Source: Eledone cirrhosa (lineage: Eukaryota). Taken from it: DNA of 64,000 nt. The stretch lies in assembly GCA_964016885.1 (NCBI GenBank), contig OZ024749.1:38874001-38938000 (forward strand), written 5' to 3'. Numbering within the stretch: the stretch's first letter is position 1; each line of letters starts with the position of its first letter. Positions 2,968 through 63,558 of this stretch are shown piece after piece. The translations under genes and the position numbers were made by a program. The notes under the pieces are model-generated. The model did no database searches and was not told the DNA's origin. It worked only from the letters and a program-made list of their open reading frames with translations.

Positions 2968-3869
2968 AGTTTGTTTTAGATTATATAGTAATCTGGAAGA
3001 AATTTAAAAAAAGGAAAAATGGAAATGAACTGATTGTCAGATCTAAGCAAAGAGACTGTGTTTCCATCAGTCTTTCCATTGCTCATATTAGCTGTTAATC
3101 ACCACTTCTGACGGAAGTGTTGCTGATTTTCTGGTGACAGGAAGTAGGATTTGAACTCAGAATGCTCAGAGCTGGAACTGATTCTTCAAAGCATTTGACT
3201 CTTTAACATTTCTGCCATTCTACCATCCCTATTTATTGATCTTAAAAGGATGAAAGGCAAAGATAACTTCAGCAGGATTTGAACACAGAATGCAGAGAAT
3301 CAGAACATATACCAAGGCATTTAATCTACTGCTCTAACAACTCTGACAATATGCCACCTAAGTTATACAGAAATCTGTAAGAAATGGTTTCTAATGTAGG
3401 CACTGAACTGGTTATTTGAGATGGAGGGGATCCTGTAGTTGACTGGTACTTTTTTATCTAGCAATTGAATAAATGAAAGGCCAAAGCTGATCTCAGTGAG
3501 ATTGAACTCATAATTTAAAGCTCTACAACTGAATACCACAAGACATTTTGTCGGGTGCCCTACTGATTCCGCCTATCAAAAGAATGGCTTATTTCACTGC
3601 TTGGTTGGGTTACATTTGCATGAGTTAAAAAACGTTAGTTGTTGTGTAGAAAGAAATGATGCTTTGAGTTAGTGTCTGTTCATTACTTTAATTTGACTTT
3701 CATCACACAAAAGTCTGGTTGTGTGAGGAATGTTTCACAACTGCCCTACAGACAGAAGAAAAAAAAATAAAACAAGGTATTGGTGTTAGTAGTGGCTGCT
3801 GCTGCTTGAATGGGAAGTATCAAAGAATAGGCAAACGAGGAAATAAGATACAGCATGTATATGAAGGGA

Positions 3870-4420
3870 AAGATGCTAAGTTTCTGGTAAAGAAATGTAG
3901 GGAGATTGTCGAGTCCAAGCTAGCTGATGAACAGTGTGGTTTTTGCCCCGGATACAGCACAGCTGACCAAATATTTATACTGTGGTAGGTCTTTGAGAAA
4001 TCAGGGGAGTACTGCCAAGTGGTGTATTCTTGCTTAGTAGACCACAAAAAAGGTATACGACTGCATTCCACGGGACCTGCTGTGGAAGGCTGTGCAGGAG
4101 TATGGGATCAATGGACAGCTTCTTGCTGTCCCGATGTCTCTATATGAATGCCTGATTATTTGCATTTGGATAAAGGGCGCTAAATCAAAACCATTCAGTA
4201 TGGGAGTTGAACTCTGCCAAGAGTGTGTACTGTCACCTCTCCAGTTCATAATCTTCATAAACATGATTGACATATGCTGCTGGGCTGGAAGTTATATCAA
4301 GGCTGGTGATTGTAGGATCAGTCAGCTAGAATTTGCAGACATGATGCTACTTAACTGATCAGAAGGTGATCTCTGACATGCACTTGATAGGTTTGATGCA
4401 GAGTGTTGCACAGTTTTTTC
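3870..4420 (+). mobile_element. Degenerate RTE-like LINE reverse transcriptase fragment
   Basis: EQCGFCPGYSTADQIF, K..YD.IPR, GV..CQECVLSPLQF, FAD motifs with stops and frameshifts. Confidence 0.8.
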
Positions 4421-5099
4421 TTCTCCCTATTTTTGCTGAGGCTGGGTGTGTGATGTTTGTTGATCACAACCTTAAAAATTGATAGTGAAAGGTCTTCAAA
4501 ATGTTTTTCATAAACATCCTGTATATTATTCAATATACAATATGTACATTCATACATATATATATATGTGTGTGTGTGTGTGTAAGACATGGTTACCTGA
4601 CCTGATTTGCCTCAAACAGAACAACCCATCTAACCCACGCTAGCATGGAAAATGGAGGTTAAATGATGATGATGATGATGATGATATCTATATGTATATA
4701 CATGTATGTGTGTGTGTAATATACTTTTAACAAACTATATTGAATTATGCGTGCATTTAAAAGGGTCAGCAGTTGGGCTAGAGTGTAGGCAGATGAATAT
4801 ATTTGTAGGTGTTAGTTTCAATGGTGTGTCTATTGATTTGTTGAGAGATCTCATAGATTTAGAGGAGGCCATTGAAAATGTTTTGACCAAGTGAGGTGGT
4901 GCTGGTGGAGGAGTGGTGTGGAGTGGAGGTGAGGGATATAAAGACCAGAACAGGAATAAAATAAAATAGAAAGCATGAATGTTTGGAATAAAACATAATT
5001 TGTAAAAAGTCAGCCCTAGGACTGGTTCATTATTATGCCATGTTGCACCAAACAATTAGGTTCCTTCCTCTAGCTCATGATGAATAAAGCAATCAATAA

Positions 5100-5820
5100 A
5101 CAACAATAACAGCAACAATGAATATTACATCTACAACAATTACAACAACAAAAACTACAACTGCTGCTGCTACTACTACTACTACAACAACAACAACAGT
5201 AACTAATATAACAGAAGCTACAGCAATAACAACAGCACTACTGCCAACAACAATAGTAACTAATACAGCAACAACTACAATGACACCACCAGCACCATGG
5301 ACATTAACAACACCACCAACAACAACAGCAACAACAATAAAAAATAAATCCCTGACAACAAAACCTGAAAATATAAGTCCATGTCAATCATATATTAACT
5401 GTTAAATTGTGGTGGTGGCCATAATGGCGGTGGTGGAGGTGGTAATGGTGGTTGTGTTGTGGAGGTGGCAATGGTGGTTATGTTGTGGAGGTGGTTATGT
5501 GGTGGTGGCCATAATGGTGATTGTGGAGGTGGTAATGGTGGGGTTGTGTTGTGGAGGTGGCAATGGTCATTATGTGGTGGTAATGGTGGTTGTGTTGTGG
5601 AGGTGGCAATGGTGGTGGCCATAATGGTGGTTGTGGAGGTGGTAATGGTGGGGTTCTGTTGTGGAGGTGGTAATGGTGGGGTTGTGTTGTGGAGGTGGTA
5701 ATGGTGGGGTTGTGTTGTGGAGGTGGCAATGGTGGTTATGTGTTGGAGGTGGTAATGGTGGTTGTGTTGTGGAGGTGGTAATGGTGGTTATGTGGTGGAG
5801 GTGGTAATGGTGGTTGTTTT
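5100..5820. repeat. (ACA/ACT)n tract followed by a G-rich ~26-30 bp minisatellite
   Basis: Repeating GGAGGTGGTAATGGTGGTTGTGTTGT units. Confidence 0.85.
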
Positions 5821-13047: not shown

Positions 13048-13440
13048 AATCATCATTTCGTTTCATTTTACGTCCCCTTTTCCCTGCTTGCAAGGGTGGG
13101 GCGGGAACTGATTCTGGCTTGATTTCTACAGCTGGATGCCCTTCCTAACACCAACCTCATTTACAGTGAGTGCTGGGTGCTTTTTTTCCGTGGCGCCTAC
13201 ACGTCCACTTTACAGCGAGTGATGGGTGCTTTTTTGCCGTGGCACCTCCACGACTACTTTGCAGTGGAATGATAGGGACCCCCAAGTCCCTATCATCTCA
13301 TTTCTACAGCTGAGTAAACTGGAGCAATGTGAAATAAAGTGTCTTGCTCAAGGAAACAACACATCACCCGGTCTGAGAATTGAACTCACAACCTTTCGAT
13401 TGCAAGGCCAATGCTTTAACCACTAAGCCATGTGCCTCCA
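13048..13440 (-). mobile_element. tRNA-derived composite SINE (family 2)
   Basis: tRNA head (TGGCTTAGTGG, GAGTTCAATTC), CORE-like CCTTGAGCAAGACACTT, GGAAGGGCATCCAGC block, LINE-like tail. Confidence 0.8.
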
Positions 13441-22953: not shown

Positions 22954-25900
22954 TGAAATATATACATATACACCAGGTCTGAACACAAAGGAACCAAACT
23001 CCAGTTGCCCCTGCCTCCATCTCTCCCACTCTCCTCATCTCTCACTATTGTGCTAGTGTGTATCTGTGAAATATATACATATACACCAGGTCTGAACACA
23101 AAGGAACCAAACTCCAGTTGCCTCTGCCTCCATCTCTCCCACTCTCCTCATCTCTCACTATGGTGCTAGTGTGTATCTGTGAAATATATACATATACACC
23201 AGGTCTGAACACAAAGGAACCAAACTCCAGTTGCCCCTGCCTCCATCTCTCCCACTCTCCTCATCTCTCACTATTGTGCTAGTGTGTATCTGTGAAATAT
23301 ATACATATACACCAGGTCTGAACACAAAGGAACCAAACTCCAGTTGCCTCTGCCTCCATCTCTCCCACTCTCCTCATCTCTCACTATGGTGCTAGTGTGT
23401 ATCTGTGAAATATATACATATACACCAGGTCTGAACACAAAGGAACCAAACTCCAGTTGCCCCTGCCTCCATCTCTCCCACTCTCCTCATCTCTCACTAT
23501 GGTGCTAGTGTGTATCTGTGAAATATATACATATACACCAGGTCTGAACACAAAGGAACCAAACTCCAGTTGCCCCTGCCTCCATCTCTCCCACTCTCCT
23601 CATCTCTCACTATGGTGCTAGTGTGTATCTGTGAAATATATACATATACACCAGGTCTGAACACAAAGGAACCAAACTCCAGTTGCCCCTGCCTCCATCT
23701 CTCCCACTCTCCTCATCTCTCACTATGGTGCTAGTGTGTATCTGTGAAATATATACATATACACCAGGTCTGAACACAAAGGAACCAAACTCCAGTTGCC
23801 CCTGCCTCCATCTCTCCCACTCTCCTCATCTCTCACTATGGTGCTAGTGTGTATCTGTGAAATATATACATATACACCAGGTCTGAACACAAAGGAACCA
23901 AACTCCAGTTGCCCCTGCCTCCATCTCTCCCACTCTCCTCATCTCTCACTATGGTGCTAGTGTGTATCTGTGAAATATATACATATACACCAGGTCTGAA
24001 CACAAAGGAACCAAACTCCAGTTGCCCCTGCCTCCATCTCTCCCACTCTCCTCATCTCTCACTATGGTGCTAGTGTGTATCTGTGAAATATATACATATA
24101 CACCAGGTCTGAACACAAAGGAACCAAACTCCAGTTGCCCCTGCCTCCATCTCTCCCACTCTCCTCATCTCTCACTATTGTGCTAGTGTGTATCTGTGAA
24201 ATATATACATATACACCAGGTCTGAACACAAAGGAACCAAACTCCAGTTGCCCCTGCCTCCATCTCTCCCACTCTCCTCATCTCTCACTATGGTGCTAGT
24301 GTGTATCTGTGAAATATATACATATACACCAGGTCTGAACACAAAGGAACCAAACTCCAGTTGCCTCTGCCTCCATCTCTCCCACTCTCCTCATCTCTCA
24401 CTATGGTGCTAGTGTGTATCTGTGAAATATATACATATACACCAGGTCTGAACACAAAGGAACCAAACTCCAGTTGCCCCTGCCTCCATCTCTCCCACTC
24501 TCCTCATCTCTCACTATGGTGCTAGTGTGTATCTGTGAAATATATACATATACACCAGGTCTGAACACAAAGGAACCAAACTCCAGTTGCCTCTGCCTCC
24601 ATCTCTCCCACTCTCCTCATCTCTCACTATGGTGCTAGTGTGTATCTGTGAAATATATACATATACACCAGGTCTGAACACAAAGGAACCAAACTCCAGT
24701 TGCCCCTGCCTCCATCTCTCCCACTCTCCTCATCTCTCACTATGGTGCTAGTGTGTATCTGTGAAATATATACATATACACCAGGTCTGAACACAAAGGA
24801 ACCAAACTCCAGTTGCCTCTGCCTCCATCTCTCCCACTCTCCTCATCTCTCACTATGGTGCTAGTGTGTATCTGTGAAATATATACATATACACCAGGTC
24901 TGAACACAAAGGAACCAAACTCCAGTTGCCCCTGCCTCCATCTCTCCCACTCTCCTCATCTCTCACTATGGTGCTAGTGTGTATCTGTGAAATATATACA
25001 TATACACCAGGTCTGAACACAAAGGAACCAAACTCCAGTTGCCTCTGCCTCCATCTCTCCCACTCTCCTCATCTCTCACTATGGTGCTAGTGTGTATCTG
25101 TGAAATATATACATATACACCAGGTCTGAACACAAAGGAACCAAACTCCAGTTGCCCCTGCCTCCATCTCTCCCACTCTCCTCATCTCTCACTATGGTGC
25201 TAGTGTGTATCTGTGAAATATATACATATACACCAGGTCTGAACACAAAGGAACCAAACTCCAGTTGCCTCTGCCTCCATCTCTCCCACTCTCCTCATCT
25301 CTCACTATGGTGCTAGTGTGTATCTGTGAAATATATACATATACACCAGGTCTGAACACAAAGGAACCAAACTCCAGTTGCCCCTGCCTCCATCTCTCCC
25401 ACTCTCCTCATCTCTCACTATTGTGCTAGTGTGTATCTGTGAAATATATACATATACACCAGGTCTGAACACAAAGGAACCAAACTCCAGTTGCCCCTGC
25501 CTCCATCTCTCCCACTCTCCTCATCTCTCACTATGGTGCTAGTGTGTATCTGTGAAATATATACATATACACCAGGTCTGAACACAAAGGAACCAAACTC
25601 CAGTTGCCTCTGCCTCCATCTCTCCCACTCTCCTCATCTCTCACTATGGTGCTAGTGTGTATCTGTGAAATATATACATATACACCAGGTCTGAACACAA
25701 AGGAACCAAACTCCAGTTGCCTCTGCCTCCATCTCTCCCACTCTCCTCATCTCTCACTATGGTGCTAGTGTGTATCTGTGAAATATATACATATACACCA
25801 GGTCTGAACACAAAGGAACCAAACTCCAGTTGCCTCTGCCTCCATCTCTCCCACTCTCCTCATCTCTCACTATGGTGCTAGTGTGTATCTGTGAAATATA

Positions 25901-28329
25901 TACATATACACCAGGTCTGAACACAAAGGAACCAAACTCCAGTTGCCCCTGCCTCCATCTCTCCCACTCTCCTCATCTCTCACTATGGTGCTAGTGTGTA
26001 TCTGTGAAATATATACATATACACCAGGTCTGAACACAAAGGAACCAAACTCCAGTTGCCCCTGCCTCCATCTCTCCCACTCTCCTCATCTCTCACTATG
26101 GTGCTAGTGTGTATCTGTGAAATATATACATATACACCAGGTCTGAACACAAAGGAACCAAACTCCAGTTGCCTCTGCCTCCATCTCTCCCACTCTCCTC
26201 ATCTCTCACTATGGTGCTAGTGTGTATCTGTGAAATATATACATATACACCAGGTCTGAACACAAAGGAACCAAACTCCAGTTGCCCCTGCCTCCATCTC
26301 TCCCACTCTCCTCATCTCTCACTATGGTGCTAGTGTGTATCTGTGAAATATATACATATACACCAGGTCTGAACACAAAGGAACCAAACTCCAGTTGCCC
26401 CTGCCTCCATCTCTCCCACTCTCCTCATCTCTCACTATTGTGCTAGTGTGTATCTGTGAAATATATACATATACACCAGGTCTGAACACAAAGGAACCAA
26501 ACTCCAGTTGCCCCTGCCTCCATCTCTCCCACTCTCCTCATCTCTCACTATGGTGCTAGTGTGTATCTGTGAAATATATACATATACACCAGGTCTGAAC
26601 ACAAAGGAACCAAACTCCAGTTGCCCCTGCCTCCATCTCTCCCACTCTCCTCATCTCTCACTATTGTGCTAGTGTGTATCTGTGAAATATATACATATAC
26701 ACCAGGTCTGAACACAAAGGAACCAAACTCCAGTTGCCCCTGCCTCCATCTCTCCCACTCTCCTCATCTCTCACTATGGTGCTAGTGTGTATCTGTGAAA
26801 TATATACATATACACCAGGTCTGAACACAAAGGAACCAAACTCCAGTTGCCCCTGCCTCCATCTCTCCCACTCTCCTCATCTCTCACTATTGTGCTAGTG
26901 TGTATCTGTGAAATATATACATATACACCAGGTCTGAACACAAAGGAACCAAACTCCAGTTGCCGCTGCCTCCATCTCTCCCACTCTCCTCATCTCTCAC
27001 TATGGTGCTAGTGTGTATCTGTGAAATATATACATATACACCAGGTCCGAACACAAAGGAACCAAACTCCAGTTGCCTCTGCCTCCATCTCTCCCACTCT
27101 CCTCATCTCTCACTATGGTGCTAGTGTGTATCTGTGAAATATATACATATACACCAGGTCTGAACACAAAGGAACCAAACTCCAGTTGCCCCTGCCTCCA
27201 TCTCTCCCACTCTCCTCATCTCTCACTATGGTGCTAGTGTGTATCTGTGAAATATATACATATACACCAGGTCTGAACACAAAGGAACCAAACTCCAGTT
27301 GCCCCTGCCTCCATCTCTCCCACTCTCCTCATCTCTCACTATGGTGCTAGTGTGTATCTGTGAAATATATACATATACACCAGGTCTGAACACAAAGGAA
27401 CCAAACTCCAGTTGCCCCTGCCTCCATCTCTCCCACTCTCCTCATCTCTCACTATGGTGCTAGTGTGTATCTGTGAAATATATACATATACACCAGGTCC
27501 GAACACAAAGGAACCAAACTCCAGTTGCCTCTGCCTCCATCTCTCCCACTCTCCTCATCTCTCACTATGGTGCTAGTGTGTATCTGTGAAATATATACAT
27601 ATACACCAGGTCTGAACACAAAGGAACCAAACTCCAGTTGCCCCTGCCTCCATCTCTCCCACTCTCCTCATCTCTCACTATGGTGCTAGTGTGTATCTGT
27701 GAAATATATACATATACACCAGGTCTGAACACAAAGGAACCAAACTCCAGTTGCCCCTGCCTCCATCTCTCCCACTCTCCTCATCTCTCACTATGGTGCT
27801 AGTGTGTATCTGTGAAATATATACATATACACCAGGTCCGAACACAAAGGAACCAAACTCCAGTTGCCCCTGCCTCCATCTCTCCCACTCTCCTCATCTC
27901 TCACTATGGTGCTAGTGTGTATCTGTGAAATATATACATATACACCAGGTCCGAACACAAAGGAACCAAACTCCAGTTGCCCCTGCCTCCATCTCTCCCA
28001 CTCTCCTCATCTCTCACTATGGTGCTAGTGTGTATCTGTGAAATATATACATATACACCAGGTCCGAACACAAAGGAACCAAACTCCAGTTGCCCCTGCC
28101 TCCATCTCTCCCACTCTCCTCATCTCTCACTATGGTGCTAGTGTGTATCTGTGAAATATATACATATACACCAGGTCCGAACACAAAGGAACCAAACTCC
28201 AGTTGCCTCTGCCTCCATCTCTCCCACTCTCCTCATCTCTCACTATGGTGCTAGTGTGTATCTGTGAAATATATACATATACACCAGGTCCGAACACAAA
28301 GGAACCAAACTCCCACTGTCGCTGCCTCA
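22954..28329. repeat. 113-bp tandem satellite, about 47.5 copies, in POMGNT1 intron 2
   Basis: CACCAGGTC recurs from 22971 to 28282 (exactly 47 x 113 bp); near-identical units. Confidence 0.97.
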
Positions 28330-30460: not shown

Positions 30461-30574
30461 GCAAGTGTGATGGCCAAGAGGGTGTTTGATACATACAGTA
30501 AACAAGAAGATGAAGCAATGGTTCTCTTCCTTAATATGATCACAAATGGTCGAATCATCATCTTCACAATCAAG
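30461..30574 (+). CDS. POMGNT1: POMGNT1 exon 5
   Basis: [38 protein letters not shown]; AG/GT; 114 nt. Confidence 0.95.
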
Positions 30575-30649
30575 GTCTGTAATCTTCATATTTCTTTACC
30601 TCTAGTCTCCCTCCCTCCCTCCCTCCCTCCCTCCCTCCCTCCCTCCCTC

Positions 30650-30691
<42 letters not shown>

Positions 30692-30695
<4 letters not shown>

Positions 30696-30886
30696 GGAAC
30701 CAGTAAGACCCTGACGGCTGAGCTCAAGCCGTTTCGACGGCTAATTCAGTCCAGAATTAGCCGTCGAAACGGCTTGAGCTCAGCCGTCGGGGTCTTACTG
30801 GTTCCTATTACCCACTCTACTACCCCAAGTATTGAGTACTTTGGTGCGTTATGGTCCACCTGGTTCCTTACCACATTTCCTTTGTT
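30692..30886. mobile_element. (TA)n-embedded foldback element
   Basis: About 54-bp arms around the loop AGTCCA, then a unique tail ending TTTGTTATATA. Confidence 0.7.
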
Positions 30887-31355
30887 ATATATATATATAT
30901 AATCTCATCATCACCATCACCATTTTACGTCCATTCTTCCACTCTAGCATGGGTTAGACAGGTTGTCCTGTCGTGGGCAATGCCCAGTCGGCTGACCTTG
31001 TCTTGCTCATACAGGAACTGATTCTGGCTTGATTTCTACAGCTGGATGCCCTTCCTAACACCAACCTCATATACAGTGAGTGTTGGGTGCTTTTTTGCCG
31101 TGGCGCCTACACACCCACTTTACAGTGTGGGCTGGATGCTTTTTTTGCCGTGGCACCTCCACGACCACTTTGCAATGGGAGGGGGTGGGGGAATATTGTC
31201 TATATGCTTCAGCTTATAGGAAAAGAGTCAGGTCAGGCCCCCAACGGCTGAGCTCCGGCCATTTCGACAGCTAGATCCAAACTGTATTGAGTACTCTGGT
31301 GCGTTATGGTCCACCTGTTTTCTTACCACACTTTCTTTGTTATATATATATATAT

Positions 31356-31656
31356 ATAATATATAAGATCAAAAGATGGTTAAAAGAGTTCCATGTATTT
31401 TATTATGCGCATTTCAAAAACAAATATCATCATGCAATAACATTTGCGTTTTCGTCAGATAAAATAGGGAGACATGATATGAAGGTTAAAACACACTTGT
31501 GAATAGGGCAGTTTTAAATCAACATATAAAATACATGGAACTCTTTTAACCATCTTTTGATCTTATATATTATTTATACTCCAGTCCTACAAACTGTAGA
31601 GTGCTTCTTATCCGATATCTGCATTGCTTTATTGTACTACAATAAAACTCACCTCC

Positions 31657-31660
<4 letters not shown>
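31356..31660. mobile_element. Hammerhead-bearing foldback element (family B), Penelope pseudo-LTR-like
   Basis: 48-bp arms 31356-31403 and 31526-31573; homologous to 63365-63904. Confidence 0.7.
31396..31466 (-). ncRNA. Type I hammerhead ribozyme motif (family B)
   Basis: UAUUUUAU-CUGACGA-[36-nt stem-loop II]-GAA-AUGCGCAU-A-AUAAAAUA; 8-bp stem I, palindromic stem III, AUA cleavage triplet. Confidence 0.8.
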
Positions 31661-31705
<45 letters not shown>

Positions 31706-31759
31706 GTGAGGTTTTTTTACAAAATGAAAAATAACCGAGGTGTCCTACACGAGTGAAAG

Positions 31760-31943
31760 TATAAAGAAAAAGAGATGAAATCGAAAATGCAACTGGAGTC
31801 TTATTAGAAAAACCACAGACCCTCCATCTCAACTCACCTTTTGAAAAGCAGAAGAACTGCGAAACCGGTAAAGGAACCAAATAAATATATATATTTTTTA
31901 AAAAAATAAGACTCCAGTTGCATTTTCGATTTCATCTCTTTTT

Positions 31944-31950
<7 letters not shown>
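31760..31950. repeat. 46-bp inverted repeat enclosing a hammerhead motif
   Basis: Arms 31760-31805 and 31905-31950. Confidence 0.9.
31837..31874 (+). ncRNA. Minimal hammerhead motif with U3-A8 core variant
   Basis: CCUU-UUGAAAA-GCAG aagaa CUGC-GAA-A CCGG U-A-AAGG. Confidence 0.65.
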
Positions 31951-31974
<24 letters not shown>

Positions 31975-32107
31975 GCAATGTCTTACTTGGTCTTCCCTTT
32001 CCTCAATATTCAATTCTTGTACAGTCTTTTATCATTCTTTCGTTCTGTCTTACAGAAAGTTGAGTTCTGAAGTGTTTATATTTTACGATATTTTGTTGCT
32101 TGTGTAG

Positions 32108-32225
32108 GACGAAGGATCATTCCAACTGAAACAGACTGCTCGCAATGTATTGAAGCAACTGGGCAGTGAGAAGGCTGATTTCCTCAACTGGAGAGACATG
32201 TGGGCATTTATTACAGTTAAAAAAA
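32108..32225 (+). CDS. POMGNT1: POMGNT1 exon 6 (followed by a GC donor)
   Basis: DEGSFQLKQTARNVLKQLGSEKADFLNWRDMWAFITVKK; the frame into exon 7 requires donor A|GCAAGT at 32226; 118 nt. Confidence 0.88.
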
Positions 32226-32392
32226 GCAAGTATTTCCTCTCAAACATCTTTGAATATATTTTAAGAGCATTTTCCCTCCCAAGACAGGGATTAGTAAGTC
32301 TTGCAAGGAATGATGATGATGATGATGATGATGGTAATGAACGTTTGACCTGAAATATTGAGTAAAAATGTGTTTTTTATTGTTTGTTTCAG

Positions 32393-42879: not shown

Positions 42880-44460
42880 TGGTAGTAGACATAATTTATC
42901 ACCCAGTTTAACACCACCACCTTTCCCTTTAGTGGTATACATAATTTATCACCCAGTTTAACACCACCACCTTTCCTTTTAGTGGTATACATAATTTGTC
43001 ACTCAGTTTAACACCACTGCCTGGTCCTTGGATGGTAGACATAACTTGTCACCCAGTTTAGCCCCACCATCTGGCCCTTCGGTGGTATACAGAATTTGTC
43101 ACCTAATTTAACACCACCACCTGGCCCTTGGGTGGTAGATTTAATTGGTCACCTAATTTAACCGCACCACGTGGCCCTTGGGTGGTAGATTTAATTTGTC
43201 ATCCAGTTTAACATGACCACTTGACCTTGTCTTTAATTGGTAGCCTTAATCTGTCACCCAGTTTAACACTGCCACCACCATCTGGTCCTTGGGTGCTAGA
43301 CTTAATCTGTCACCCAGTTTAACACTGCCACCACCATCTGGTCCTTGGGTGCTAGACTTAATCTGTCACCCAGTTTAACACTGCCACCACCATCTGGTCC
43401 TTGGGTGCTAGACTTAATCTGTCACCCAGTTTAACACTGCCACCACCATCTGGTCCTTGTGTGGTAGCCTTAACCTGTCACCCAGTTTAACACTGCCACC
43501 ACCATCTGGTCCTTGTGTGGTAGCCTTAATCTGTCACCCAGTTTAACACTGCCACCACCATCTGGTCCTTGTGTGGTAGCCTTAATCTGTCACCCAGTTT
43601 AACACTGCCACCACCATCTGGTCCTTGGGTGCTAGACTTAATCTGTCACCCAGTTTAACACTGCCACCACCATCTGGTCCTTGGGTGCTAGACTTAATCT
43701 GTCACCCAGTTTAACACTGCCACCACCATCTGGTCCTTGGGTGCTAGACTTAATCTGTCACCCAGTTTAACACTGCCACCACCATCTGGTCCTTGGGTGC
43801 TAGACTTAATCTGTCACCCAGTTTAACACTGCCACCACCATCTGGTCCTTGGGTGCTAGACTTAATCTGTCACCCAGTTTAACACTGCCACCACCATCTG
43901 GTCCTTGGGTGCTAGACTTAATCTGTCACCCAGTTTAACACTGCCACCACCATCTGGTCCTTGGGTGCTAGACTTAATCTGTCACCCAGTTTAACACTGC
44001 CACCACCATCTGGTCCTTGGGTGCTAGACTGAATCTGTCACCCAGTTTAACACTGCCACCACCATCTGGTCCTTGGGTGCTAGACTGAATCTGTCACCCA
44101 GTTTAACACTGCTACCATCATCTGGTCCTTGGGTGCTAGACTTAATCTGTCACCCAGTTTAACACTGCCACCACCATCTGGTCCTTGTGTGGTAGCCTTA
44201 ATCTGTCACCCAGTTTAACACTGCCACCACCATCTGGTCCTTGGGTGCTAGACTGAATCTGTCACCCAGTTTAACACTGCCACCACCATCTGGTCCTTGG
44301 GTGGTAGACATAATTTGTCACCTAGTTTAACACCACCACCTGGCCATTGGGTGCTAGACTTAATCTATCACCTAGTTTGACACAACCACCTTAGTTGTGT
44401 GTTCAAATCCAACTGTAGTGTACTTGGGTGTTACATTTAATCTGTTGCCCAGTTTCATAT
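42880..44460. repeat. 53-56 bp minisatellite (homogeneous 56-bp core about 43240-44310)
   Basis: AATCTGTCACCCAGTTTAACACTGCCACCACCATCTGGTCCTTGGGTGCTAGACTT units. Confidence 0.93.
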
Positions 44461-44578
44461 GACTGCCTGGCTTTTGGATGCCTTTCACAAAGTCCTTTCT
44501 ATTGCCAAATTTGAAAACAGACATAAAAATGATGATGATGATGATGATGATGATGATATATTTTCTACTTGGTTTTAG

Positions 44579-44687
44579 GATGAAGAAAGACTATTATGAA
44601 ATTCTTATCAAACAACTTATCCAAGATGCCAAACTTTTAAACCACAGCCACCCACCATGTTCAGAAGACTTTATTCCTAATACCAAG
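44579..44687 (+). CDS. POMGNT1: POMGNT1 exon 16
   Basis: MKKDYYEILIKQLIQDAKLLNHSHPPCSEDFIPNTK; 109 nt. Confidence 0.92.
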
Positions 44688-44752
44688 GTAAATGCTAACT
44701 TCTCAAACACAAATTAACTCTACAGACAATATATGTGTGTGTATGTGTAGGC

Positions 44753-44786
<34 letters not shown>

Positions 44787-44949
44787 CTGTCTATGTGTGT
44801 GATGTGTATGTTTACATTTGTCTATCAGTAACATATGGAAGGTTCTGCTGAATATTGTAATGAGGTAAATTAATTGCCATATGTTTCAATAATGTATACA
44901 TATATATAAAAACATACATATATAGGAACATATGTATGTGTGTATGTGT

Positions 44950-44986
<37 letters not shown>

Positions 44987-45078
44987 ATGAGAACTAGATA
45001 GATATCATCTAGAAGGGTATTATTTATGTGTTCTGATTATGTACCCTTTGTTTCAGTGTGTGTGTATATATATATATG

Positions 45079-45136
<58 letters not shown>

Positions 45137-45186
45137 AGACCTGACAGCTGAACTCTTGCTGCGTCAACAACTAGTTATATATATAC

Positions 45187-45219
<33 letters not shown>

Positions 45220-45300
45220 CATACACAGACACACACACATACATAATTATATGCTTTCCATGCAAGTGGAGAAAATGGTCATTAAAAGATGATGATGATG

Positions 45301-45374
<74 letters not shown>

Positions 45375-45396
45375 AGTGTGTGTATGTGTATACATT

Positions 45397-45429
<33 letters not shown>

Positions 45430-45511
45430 ATATATGTAATTATATAATTGGTAGGGTATAAGTGTATGTTGTATTAATTGTGTTTCTATTGTTGTTCTGC
45501 TCTATTTTCAG

Positions 45512-45583
45512 GATGAAGTCTATGTGATGTATATAAATATGACTTCAGATAAAGACTACACAACATGGAAACATCTGGCTAAA
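45512..45583 (+). CDS. POMGNT1: POMGNT1 exon 17
   Basis: DEVYVMYINMTSDKDYTTWKHLAK; TTTCAG/GTGAGT; 72 nt. Confidence 0.92.
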
Positions 45584-45588
45584 GTGAG

Positions 45589-46052
45589 TTAACCCTTCCA
45601 ATATCATGTTTCTAATGAAGGACACTGCCTATGTTTAACCCTTCCAATATCATGTTTCTAAAGAAGGACACTGCCTATGTTTAACCCTTCCAATATCATG
45701 TTTCTAATGAAGGACACTGCCTATGTTTAACCCTTCCAATATCATGTTTCTAATGAAGGACATTGCCTATGTTTAACCCTTCCAATATCATGTTTCTAAT
45801 GAAGGACACTGCCTATGTTTAACCCTTCCAATATCATGTTTCTAATGAAGGACACTGCCTATGTTTAACCCTTCCAATATCATCTTTCTAATGAAGGACA
45901 CTGCCTATGTTTAACCCTTCCAATATCATGTTTCTAATGAAGGACATTGCCTATGTTTAACCCTTCCAATAATACAATATTTCTAGTGAAAGGCATTGCC
46001 TCTGTTTAATTCTTCCATTACCATATTTCTAATCAAGGACACTGCCTATGTT
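45589..46052. repeat. 46-bp minisatellite starting at the exon 17 donor
   Basis: TTAACCCTTCCAATATCATGTTTCTAATGAAGGACACTGCCTATGT, about 10 copies. Confidence 0.9.
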
Positions 46053-46434
46053 TAACCCTTTAGCATTTAAACCGGCCATATCTGGCCAAAATTCTCTCCT
46101 CTTTGTTTTCAAACTGGCCTTAACCAGCTGCTCATACTTATATTAAGGTATTGTTCTCAAAATAAATAATGTCAAAATCTTGTAGATTTGATATTATGTG
46201 AGATAATTAAGTGAAATAAAGTCTTTACCATGAAAATACAATAGTAAATATAGAATAATGCAAATGCTAAAGGGTTGACCCTTCCGTTACCATATTTCTA
46301 ATGAATGACACTGTCTATGTTTAACCCTTCCATTACCAACATACAGTGTATAGTTTAATATATGTTGAATGTTTTGGTATATGAAAAATATATAAATGTT
46401 TATTTTCTCTTCTCTCCTTTTCTCTCTTTAATAG

Positions 46435-46476
46435 TGTTTCCATCTATGGGATTTAGATGTCAGAGGATTTCATAAG
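46435..46476 (+). CDS. POMGNT1: POMGNT1 exon 18
   Basis: CFHLWDLDVRGFHK; long pyrimidine tract+TAG acceptor, GTGAGA donor; 42 nt. Confidence 0.93.
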
Positions 46477-46534
46477 GTGAGAACATATATTCTTCTTCCC
46501 TTTGTCTTACACTTAATGACTAATAACTGAAGTT

Positions 46535-47555
46535 ATATTGGCTAACTTAACACATATTAACTACTGTAATACTGGCTAACTTAACACATATTAACTACTG
46601 TAATACTGGCTAGCTTAACACATATTAACTACTGTAATACTAGCTAACTTAACACATATTAACTACTGTAATACTGGCTAACTTAACACATTAACTACAG
46701 TAATACTGGCTAACTTAACACATATTAACTACAGTAATACTGGCTAACTTAACACATATTAACTACAGTAATACTGGCTAGCTTAACACATATTAACTAC
46801 TGTAATACTGGCTAGCTTAACACATATTAACTACTGTAATACTGGCTAACTTAACACATATTAACTACAGTAATACTAGCTAACTTAACACATATTAACT
46901 ACAGTAATACTGGCTAGCTTAACACATATTAACTACTGTAATACTGGCTAACTTAACACATATTAACTACAGTAATACTAGCTAACTTAACACATATTAA
47001 CTACTGTAATACTGGCTAGCTTAACACATATTAACTATTGTAATACTGGCTAACTTAACACATATTAACTACAGTAATACTAGCTAACTTAACACATATT
47101 AACTACTGTAATACTGGCTAACTTAACACATATTAACTACTGTAATATTGGCTAACTTAACACATATTAATTACTGTAATATTGGCTAGCTTAACACATA
47201 TTAACTACTGTAATACTGGCTAACTTAACACATATTAACTACTGTAATACTGGCTAACTTAACACATATTAACTACAGTAATACTAGCTAACTTAACACA
47301 TATTAACTACTGTAATATTGGCTAACTTAACACATTAATTACAGTAATACTAGCTAACTTAACACATATTAACTACTGTAATATTGGCTAACTTAACACA
47401 TATTAACTACTGTAATATTGGCTAACTTAACACATATTAACTACAGTAATACTGGCTAACTTAACACATATTAACTACTGTAATATTGGCTAACTTAACA
47501 CACATTAACTACAGTATTACTGGTTACTTGAACATAACTACAGTATTACTAGCTA
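46535..47555. repeat. 34-bp minisatellite
   Basis: CTGGCTAACTTAACACATATTAACTACTGTAATA, about 30 copies. Confidence 0.93.
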
Positions 47556-63287: not shown

Positions 63288-63365
<78 letters not shown>

Positions 63366-63491
63366 GTAGGAGGTGAGTTTTATTGTAGTACAATAAAGCA
63401 ATGCAGATATCGGATAAGAAGCACTCTACAGTTTGTAGGACTGGAGTATACATAATATAAGATCAAAAGATGGTTAAAGGAGTTCCATGTA

Positions 63492-63558
63492 TTTTATTAT
63501 GCGCATTTCAAAAACAAACATCATCATGCAATAATATTTGTGTTTTCATCAGATAAAA
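63492..63558 (-). ncRNA. Type I hammerhead ribozyme motif (family B)
   Basis: UUUUAU-CUGAUGA-[stem II]-GAA-AUGCGCAU-A-AUAAAA. Confidence 0.8.

Follow-up and report, generated by a model that had tools for sequence, protein, structure and literature searches.

A U3-A8 hammerhead motif in a Penelope-like element remnant within intron 5 of POMGNT1 in the octopus Eledone cirrhosa

The window analysed here is a stretch of 64,000 nucleotides from Eledone cirrhosa, and the gene that hosts the feature under study is POMGNT1. The exon next to that feature matches human POMGNT1 in the PDB (E-value 2e-8) and is 93% identical to Octopus POMGNT1. When POMGNT1 of Octopus vulgaris is compared by tblastn, coding exon 5 falls at 30461-30574 and coding exon 6 at 32108-32227, both on the + strand. 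The intron between them (30575..32107, + strand) begins with GT at 30575 and ends with AG at 32106-07. It is numbered 5 by the coding exons, any 5' UTR exons being outside the count.

Within intron 5 lies a 247-base, truncated and inverted fragment of the pLTR of a Penelope-like retroelement, set between two (TA)n runs that the repeat scan places at 31660..31699 (left) and 31947..31974 (right) and that represent the target microsatellite. The first part of the fragment (31700..31805, - strand) repeats the 3' end of the pLTR in inverted orientation; across its 106 bases it is 93-99% identical to the pLTR ends of three related loci (L031, L071 and L074), and it includes a tail that is absent from the sense piece. 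The sense piece itself (31806..31946, + strand) is 5'-truncated, is 94-98% identical to the pLTRs of five RT-bearing loci (L031, L071-L074), and stops without a tail, in (TA)n. A perfect 46-bp inverted repeat spans 31760..31950 (arms 31760-31805 and 31905-31950), and its 99-nt loop holds a hammerhead motif. Penelope-like elements typically show truncation at the 5' end, have an inverted copy alongside and a tail, and target (TA)n (PMC8557442).

The motif (31837..31874, + strand) is a minimal type I hammerhead with two stems of 4 bp, a U3-A8 core and a GUA site. Stem I is formed by CCTT (31837-40) and AAGG (31871-74), and stem II by GCAG (31848-51) and CTGC (31857-60). The 5' core box UUGAAAA (31841..31847) matches the family consensus and the general form N3-UGA-N-N8-A, with U3 at 31841 and A8 at 31846 as the Watson-Crick 3-8 pair; the second core box is GAAA (31861-64). 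Stem II opens with G10.1-C11.1, and A9 directly adjoins G10.1, there being no extra base between 9 and 10.1. After GAAA follow CCGG (31865-68) and TA (31869-70), and A15.1-CCGG-U16.1 makes up the palindrome ACCGGU (31864..31869), which includes the A15.1-U16.1 pair (A31864-U31869). A palindromic 15.2-16.2 segment with loop 3 is characteristic of Penelope-type minimal hammerheads, and stem III is predicted to form solely between two copies. The NUH site is the triplet GUA, with the predicted cut at 31870/31871.

A strict descriptor of minimal hammerheads gives one match in the 64-kb window and none in 200 block-shuffled copies of it, and no second copy of the motif was found in the window. Rfam reports no hammerhead at gathering level across the window, and none at E<=10 across 31600-32100, where 28 sub-threshold matches occur that are mostly miRNA-type hairpins. 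These miRNA-type matches are all below threshold, and a miRNA precursor was rejected. An earlier note on this DNA had read the motif, its stems, GAAA, CCGG and the GUA site at 31837-31874 exactly as they are described here. It had also placed the motif in the sense orientation within POMGNT1 intron 5, as the tblastn exon placement and the splice dinucleotides bear out, and its statement that canonical motif searches miss the variant agrees with the Rfam results at both thresholds.

The U3-A8 core is the norm of the family rather than a peculiarity of this copy. The first 30 loci (of which L026 and L028 coincide) gave 45 BLAST rows, and all 32 that could be parsed have TTGAAAA; the other 13 comprise eight with the same core, one without G5, and four of AT-repeat noise or a reversed partial. 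Across the genome the exact 34-mer with U3-A8 is present in 10,963 copies (control, 0), while C3-G8 on the same stems is absent. The single changes C3-A8 and U3-G8 occur 51 and 22 times, the four count patterns differing slightly in length, and this level (0.2-0.5%) is what mutation after insertion would be expected to leave. The check proposed in the earlier note, that the family consensus should carry U3 and A8, has thus been run and has come out in its favour. The C3-G8 counts apply to the stem III sequence tested, and say nothing on C3-G8 hammerheads with another stem III. A general C3-G8 pattern ending in CGAAACCGGT has 2 matches with poor stems against 140 for its reversed control, which makes that control unusable as background.

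The stems also vary within the family. A U3-A8 pattern with a changed fourth stem II pair (the dominant stem II excluded) has 144 matches, and 28 of the 30 that were fetched retain at least three stem II pairs. The compensatory stem II types are GCAT/ATGC, GCAC/GTGC, GCAA/TTGC, GCTA/TAGC and GATTG/CAATC, while CTT/AAG, TTT/AAA and AATAT/ATATT are found as stem I in the diverged families. Since the core of this set is forced by the query pattern, the stems alone are independent evidence. Their covariation suggests that the fold has been under selection in the lineage of the element and not at the POMGNT1 locus. Variation in the family extends to the outer pair of stem I, which is different in roughly half of the contig depth summed over three runs, none of whose contigs reaches across the POMGNT1 insertion. 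A side observation concerns seven C3-A8 copies at G000:C1:348863669-348949713, six of them at intervals of about 9.6 kb and the seventh 38 kb beyond, a spacing that suggests a single mutated copy multiplied as a tandem array.

In a genome of 3.0 billion bases the 10,963 copies amount to one exact motif per ~273 kb, so that a copy in an intron is unremarkable and expected by chance. Among related retrozyme copies in Xenopus, ~43% are reported to overlap introns (bioRxiv 10.64898/2026.07.22.740005). The core and flanks of the POMGNT1 copy are 96-100% identical to copies elsewhere in the genome, and so show no sign of local adaptation.

A genome search with the 247-base insert, in which 40 of 331 candidates were scored, returned 107 matches. 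A complete element is found at G000:C2:32.686-32.692 Mb and consists of an inverted pLTR, a pLTR, RT and GIY-YIG frames, and a further pLTR. Many of the 150 scored RT matches fall in long open frames, and the four frames that were checked (three of 775 aa, one of 938 aa) each contain DKG, YxDD, a CX4CxxC linker and a GIY-YIG region. In one 775-aa frame Pfam finds GIY-YIG at 682-772 above the cutoff (27.9 vs 22.6 bits) and RVT_1 at 295-441 just under it (E 1.3e-6). The linker that joins RT to EN, at residue 645 in the 775-aa frames, is of the CX2-5CxxC type that marks Neptune and Nematis (Craig et al. 2021, PMC8557442). Among the five longer stretches examined, two have a same-strand pair of hammerheads flanking the frame (L031, 7905/3197; L074, 6931/1952), with spacings of 4.7 kb and 5.0 kb respectively. 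The hallmarks of EN+ Penelope-like elements are therefore present, and as in the EN+ elements Neptune and Nematis (PMC8557442) they comprise RT followed by a C-terminal GIY-YIG in one frame, DKG, the linker, hammerhead pLTRs, an inverted 5'-truncated copy, a tail and a (TA)n microsatellite target. The parent appears to be a young, high-copy Penelope-like element with a Neptune/Nematis-type linker, which makes these two its candidate clades. Also in this family, the 775-aa RT-EN frame is overlapped by an upstream one that is read in a different frame (L072:2561-3391 and 3304-5628; also L031:7101-7733). This would fit an ORF1 joined by frameshift, an arrangement mentioned for such elements (PMC8557442, Fig. 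1 legend).

Truncated remnants of a second Penelope-like family lie in POMGNT1 intron 5 too (30693-30901 and 31239-31356), and the 5' core is absent from them. This family has 2,099 hammerhead matches in the genome, and among the 100 matches listed 98 are U3-A8 and 2 are C3-A8. A full motif (L013:2571-2668) combines a long stem II with a stem III of 6 bp, and its site is GUC. The three-way junction is the minimum-energy prediction for its monomer, with a z-score of just -0.64. In tandem copies (L081) the hammerhead recurs every 3.54 kb, before frames of 784-786 aa with DKT and CxCX5C, which are marks of the Hydra clade (PMC8557442). Pfam gave no match on the one such frame submitted.

Fold predictions bear on how the motif of the first family might act. 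Stem II is predicted with a probability of 0.8-0.9, and the 4-bp stem I with 0.7 when the motif is folded by itself and 0.08 within the intron, where the flanking 46-bp helix has a pair probability of ~1.0. In the monomer, stem III has a probability of 0.0, while the palindrome gives a self-duplex of -8.3 kcal/mol, and the 38-nt fold as a whole is no better than that of shuffled sequences (z -0.94). Two copies are predicted to cofold through ACCGGU into double-hammerhead helices, at -20.3 kcal/mol, whereas a pair of monomers gives -12.8 kcal/mol; with 100 nt of context, the predicted pairing instead uses other A/U-rich sequence and not the palindrome. As a stable stem III is missing from the predicted monomer, the motif does not appear to be a canonical monomer-active hammerhead. 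By position and anatomy it belongs with the Penelope-associated class, and by analogy it would work like a dimer-type minimal hammerhead, its cleavage being a prediction. In the minimum-energy folds of both monomer and dimer, U3 pairs with A17. The corresponding C3-G17 pair is an inactive trap conformation in hammerheads (PMC3884650). Such a mispair would lower the expected activity, and could also serve as a latch; given this counterpart of the C3-G17 trap, the motif might be inactive even in its parent element.

The closest published systems are the minimal hammerheads of Penelope-like elements described by Cervera & De la Pena (2014, PMC4209133). In that work the single minimal motif did not cleave, and dimers and trimers cleaved at a low level; a U3-A8 variant was found there by homology with the Cercyon elements of Schistosoma mansoni, with ~1,300 matches. 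The octopus family shares with them the type I topology, the position in the pLTR, the short stem I, the unstable palindromic stem III with its dependence on dimers, the U3-A8 core, and the thousands of dispersed single copies that derive from truncated elements (PMC4209133). It differs from the S. mansoni families in having a stem II of 4 bp and not of 7-8 bp (PMC4209133). It also has no extra base between A9 and G10.1, a base that is described as common but dispensable for catalysis (PMC4209133), and its GUA site can mispair with U3. The octopus copies are highly uniform, like those of D. virilis, whereas the S. mansoni copies are heterogeneous (PMC4209133). The same 3-8 swap was reported in 2011 as a natural covariation in several hammerheads, the authors citing an earlier study for activity in vitro (Perreault et al., PMC3088659), and this supports the earlier note in treating U3-A8 as a known and tolerated covariation; that survey was general, whereas the octopus motif is of the dimer type and belongs to a retroelement. 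No relevant rate data for the 3-8 swap turned up in the literature searched. The occurrence of U3-A8 in Penelope-like hammerheads is thus already in print, and the addition made here is an octopus family within a published class. No description of this family was found in the literature searched, which lay outside subscription papers and supplements, and Repbase-type collections may hold the element.

Domesticated hammerheads in the introns of amniotes (HH9 and HH10) are single-copy, conserved and stable as monomers, and lie in the sense orientation to the host gene. The POMGNT1 motif shares with them the intronic position and the orientation, but it has more than 10,000 recent copies and no stem III on its own. 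A domesticated intronic ribozyme was rejected on the ground that the 10,963 exact copies are not a single-copy state. A non-LTR retrozyme array was likewise rejected, the site having a single truncated, inverted copy and no head-to-tail tandem hammerhead units.

The most probable explanation is that the hammerhead came to intron 5 as part of the pLTR, left there as a truncated, inverted (TA)n insertion of the Penelope-like element, and that the lone copy is close to inactive; we hold this with good, though not complete, confidence. In the transcript of the parent element two pLTR copies would pair through ACCGGU into a double hammerhead and be cut after GUA. This cutting would process the element precursor RNA, probably slowly and with the help of an element protein, as the published relatives suggest (PMC4209133, PMC11167929). 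Activity in the parent is suggested by that analogy and by the covariation of the stems. U3-A8 would replace the tertiary C3-G8 pair, and each insertion would have inherited it from the master element. In POMGNT1 the motif lacks a cis partner within the window, and if a cut did occasionally occur, it would lie in the loop of the 46-bp hairpin, whose flanking helix is predicted to keep both intron pieces paired afterwards. The copy is thus likely to do little to the host gene. The earlier note was right on U3-A8, and missed that the motif is a passenger of the pLTR of an element with more than 10,000 copies. It also passed over the published record of U3-A8 in Penelope-like elements and the predicted U3-A17 pairing.

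An alternative is that the hammerhead shape has been kept while cleavage has been lost in every context, with the U3-A17 pair and a stem I of 3-4 bp as a trap, and that the motif is simply copied within the pLTR. The predicted U3-A17 pairing in monomer and dimer, with its resemblance to the C3-G17 trap, speaks for it. So do the Anolis element, in which mutants of the hammerhead had no effect on insertion in vitro (PMC11167929), and the Naiad elements, which spread without hammerheads (PMC8557442). On the other hand, the covariation of stems I and II among the diverged families argues for selection on the fold at the level of the lineage; U3-A8 is reported as active in vitro (PMC3088659), and G17 variants still cleave in hammerheads with tertiary stabilisation. 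On balance this alternative is unlikely. A bolder proposal takes the U3-A17 pair as a latch: U3-A8 would have taken over almost entirely from C3-G8 in two or more unrelated Penelope-like clades of this octopus (~13,000 copies, missed by Rfam where tested), and the latch would block the cutting of host pre-mRNA by thousands of intronic copies until the element protein opens it. This we regard as improbable.

A third possibility, that the intronic copy cuts POMGNT1 pre-mRNA by pairing in trans with sister copies and so lowers or shapes expression, is more doubtful still. The sense orientation, the more than 10,000 identical potential partners and the predicted preference for the dimer over two monomers in isolation would favour it. 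However, the window contains a single copy, stem I is rarely formed in the predicted intron context and the site lies within the hairpin loop, and the cofold with 100 nt of context bypasses the palindrome. A single minimal hammerhead of the same class was inactive and its dimers were weak (PMC4209133), and the Anolis element cleaved only with the element protein, and left no RNA-seq ends at the site (PMC11167929). The near-identity of the POMGNT1 copy to other copies, as noted above, also counts against a local role. The suggestion of the earlier note that the motif could cut the host pre-mRNA on dimerising is accordingly not upheld, given the lack of a partner in the window, the weak stem I, the U3-A17 pairing, and published relatives that are weak as dimers or depend on protein.

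Lastly, that U3-A8 arose here by independent decay from CUGAAGA, which the earlier note had named beforehand as an outcome that would speak against it, or is a chance match, is hardly conceivable: Rfam does not score the motif, but decay is refuted by the U3-A8 and C3-G8 counts, and the descriptor found nothing in the 200 shuffles.

The perfect 46-bp hairpin (31760-31950) sits ~160 bases upstream of the 3' splice site. In a cephalopod we take such a hairpin to be a plausible substrate for A-to-I editing, and editing is plausibly a likelier effect on the host RNA than cleavage.

As it stands, the finding is of little importance beyond adding an octopus family to the published class. If a U3-A17 latch or cleavage by trans-dimers were true, it would explain how a genome tolerates thousands of intronic ribozyme copies. 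Counts of cephalopod hammerheads that are based on Rfam are probably too low, since 235 were reported for the giant squid (PMC6962438), whereas a single family here has ~11,000 exact copies. The second family, with its predicted stable stem III, offers an easy natural substrate for tests of U3-A8 activity.

Other repeats are present in the window. Directly upstream of the hammerhead insert, between (TA)n runs, a third repeat (31351-31659) has a 53-bp inverted repeat and a tail-like end; a copy with 95% identity lies at 63326-63512, and this repeat is possibly another pLTR fragment. The sole match at gathering level of Rfam in the window is tRNA-like (13373-13430, - strand), at 29.3 bits just at the threshold, and is probably a tRNA-derived SINE. 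Coding intron 2 of POMGNT1 contains a 113-bp minisatellite (22954-28313) of 47 copies that are 99% identical, and further arrays with units of 56, 46 and 34 bp occur at 43021-47523.
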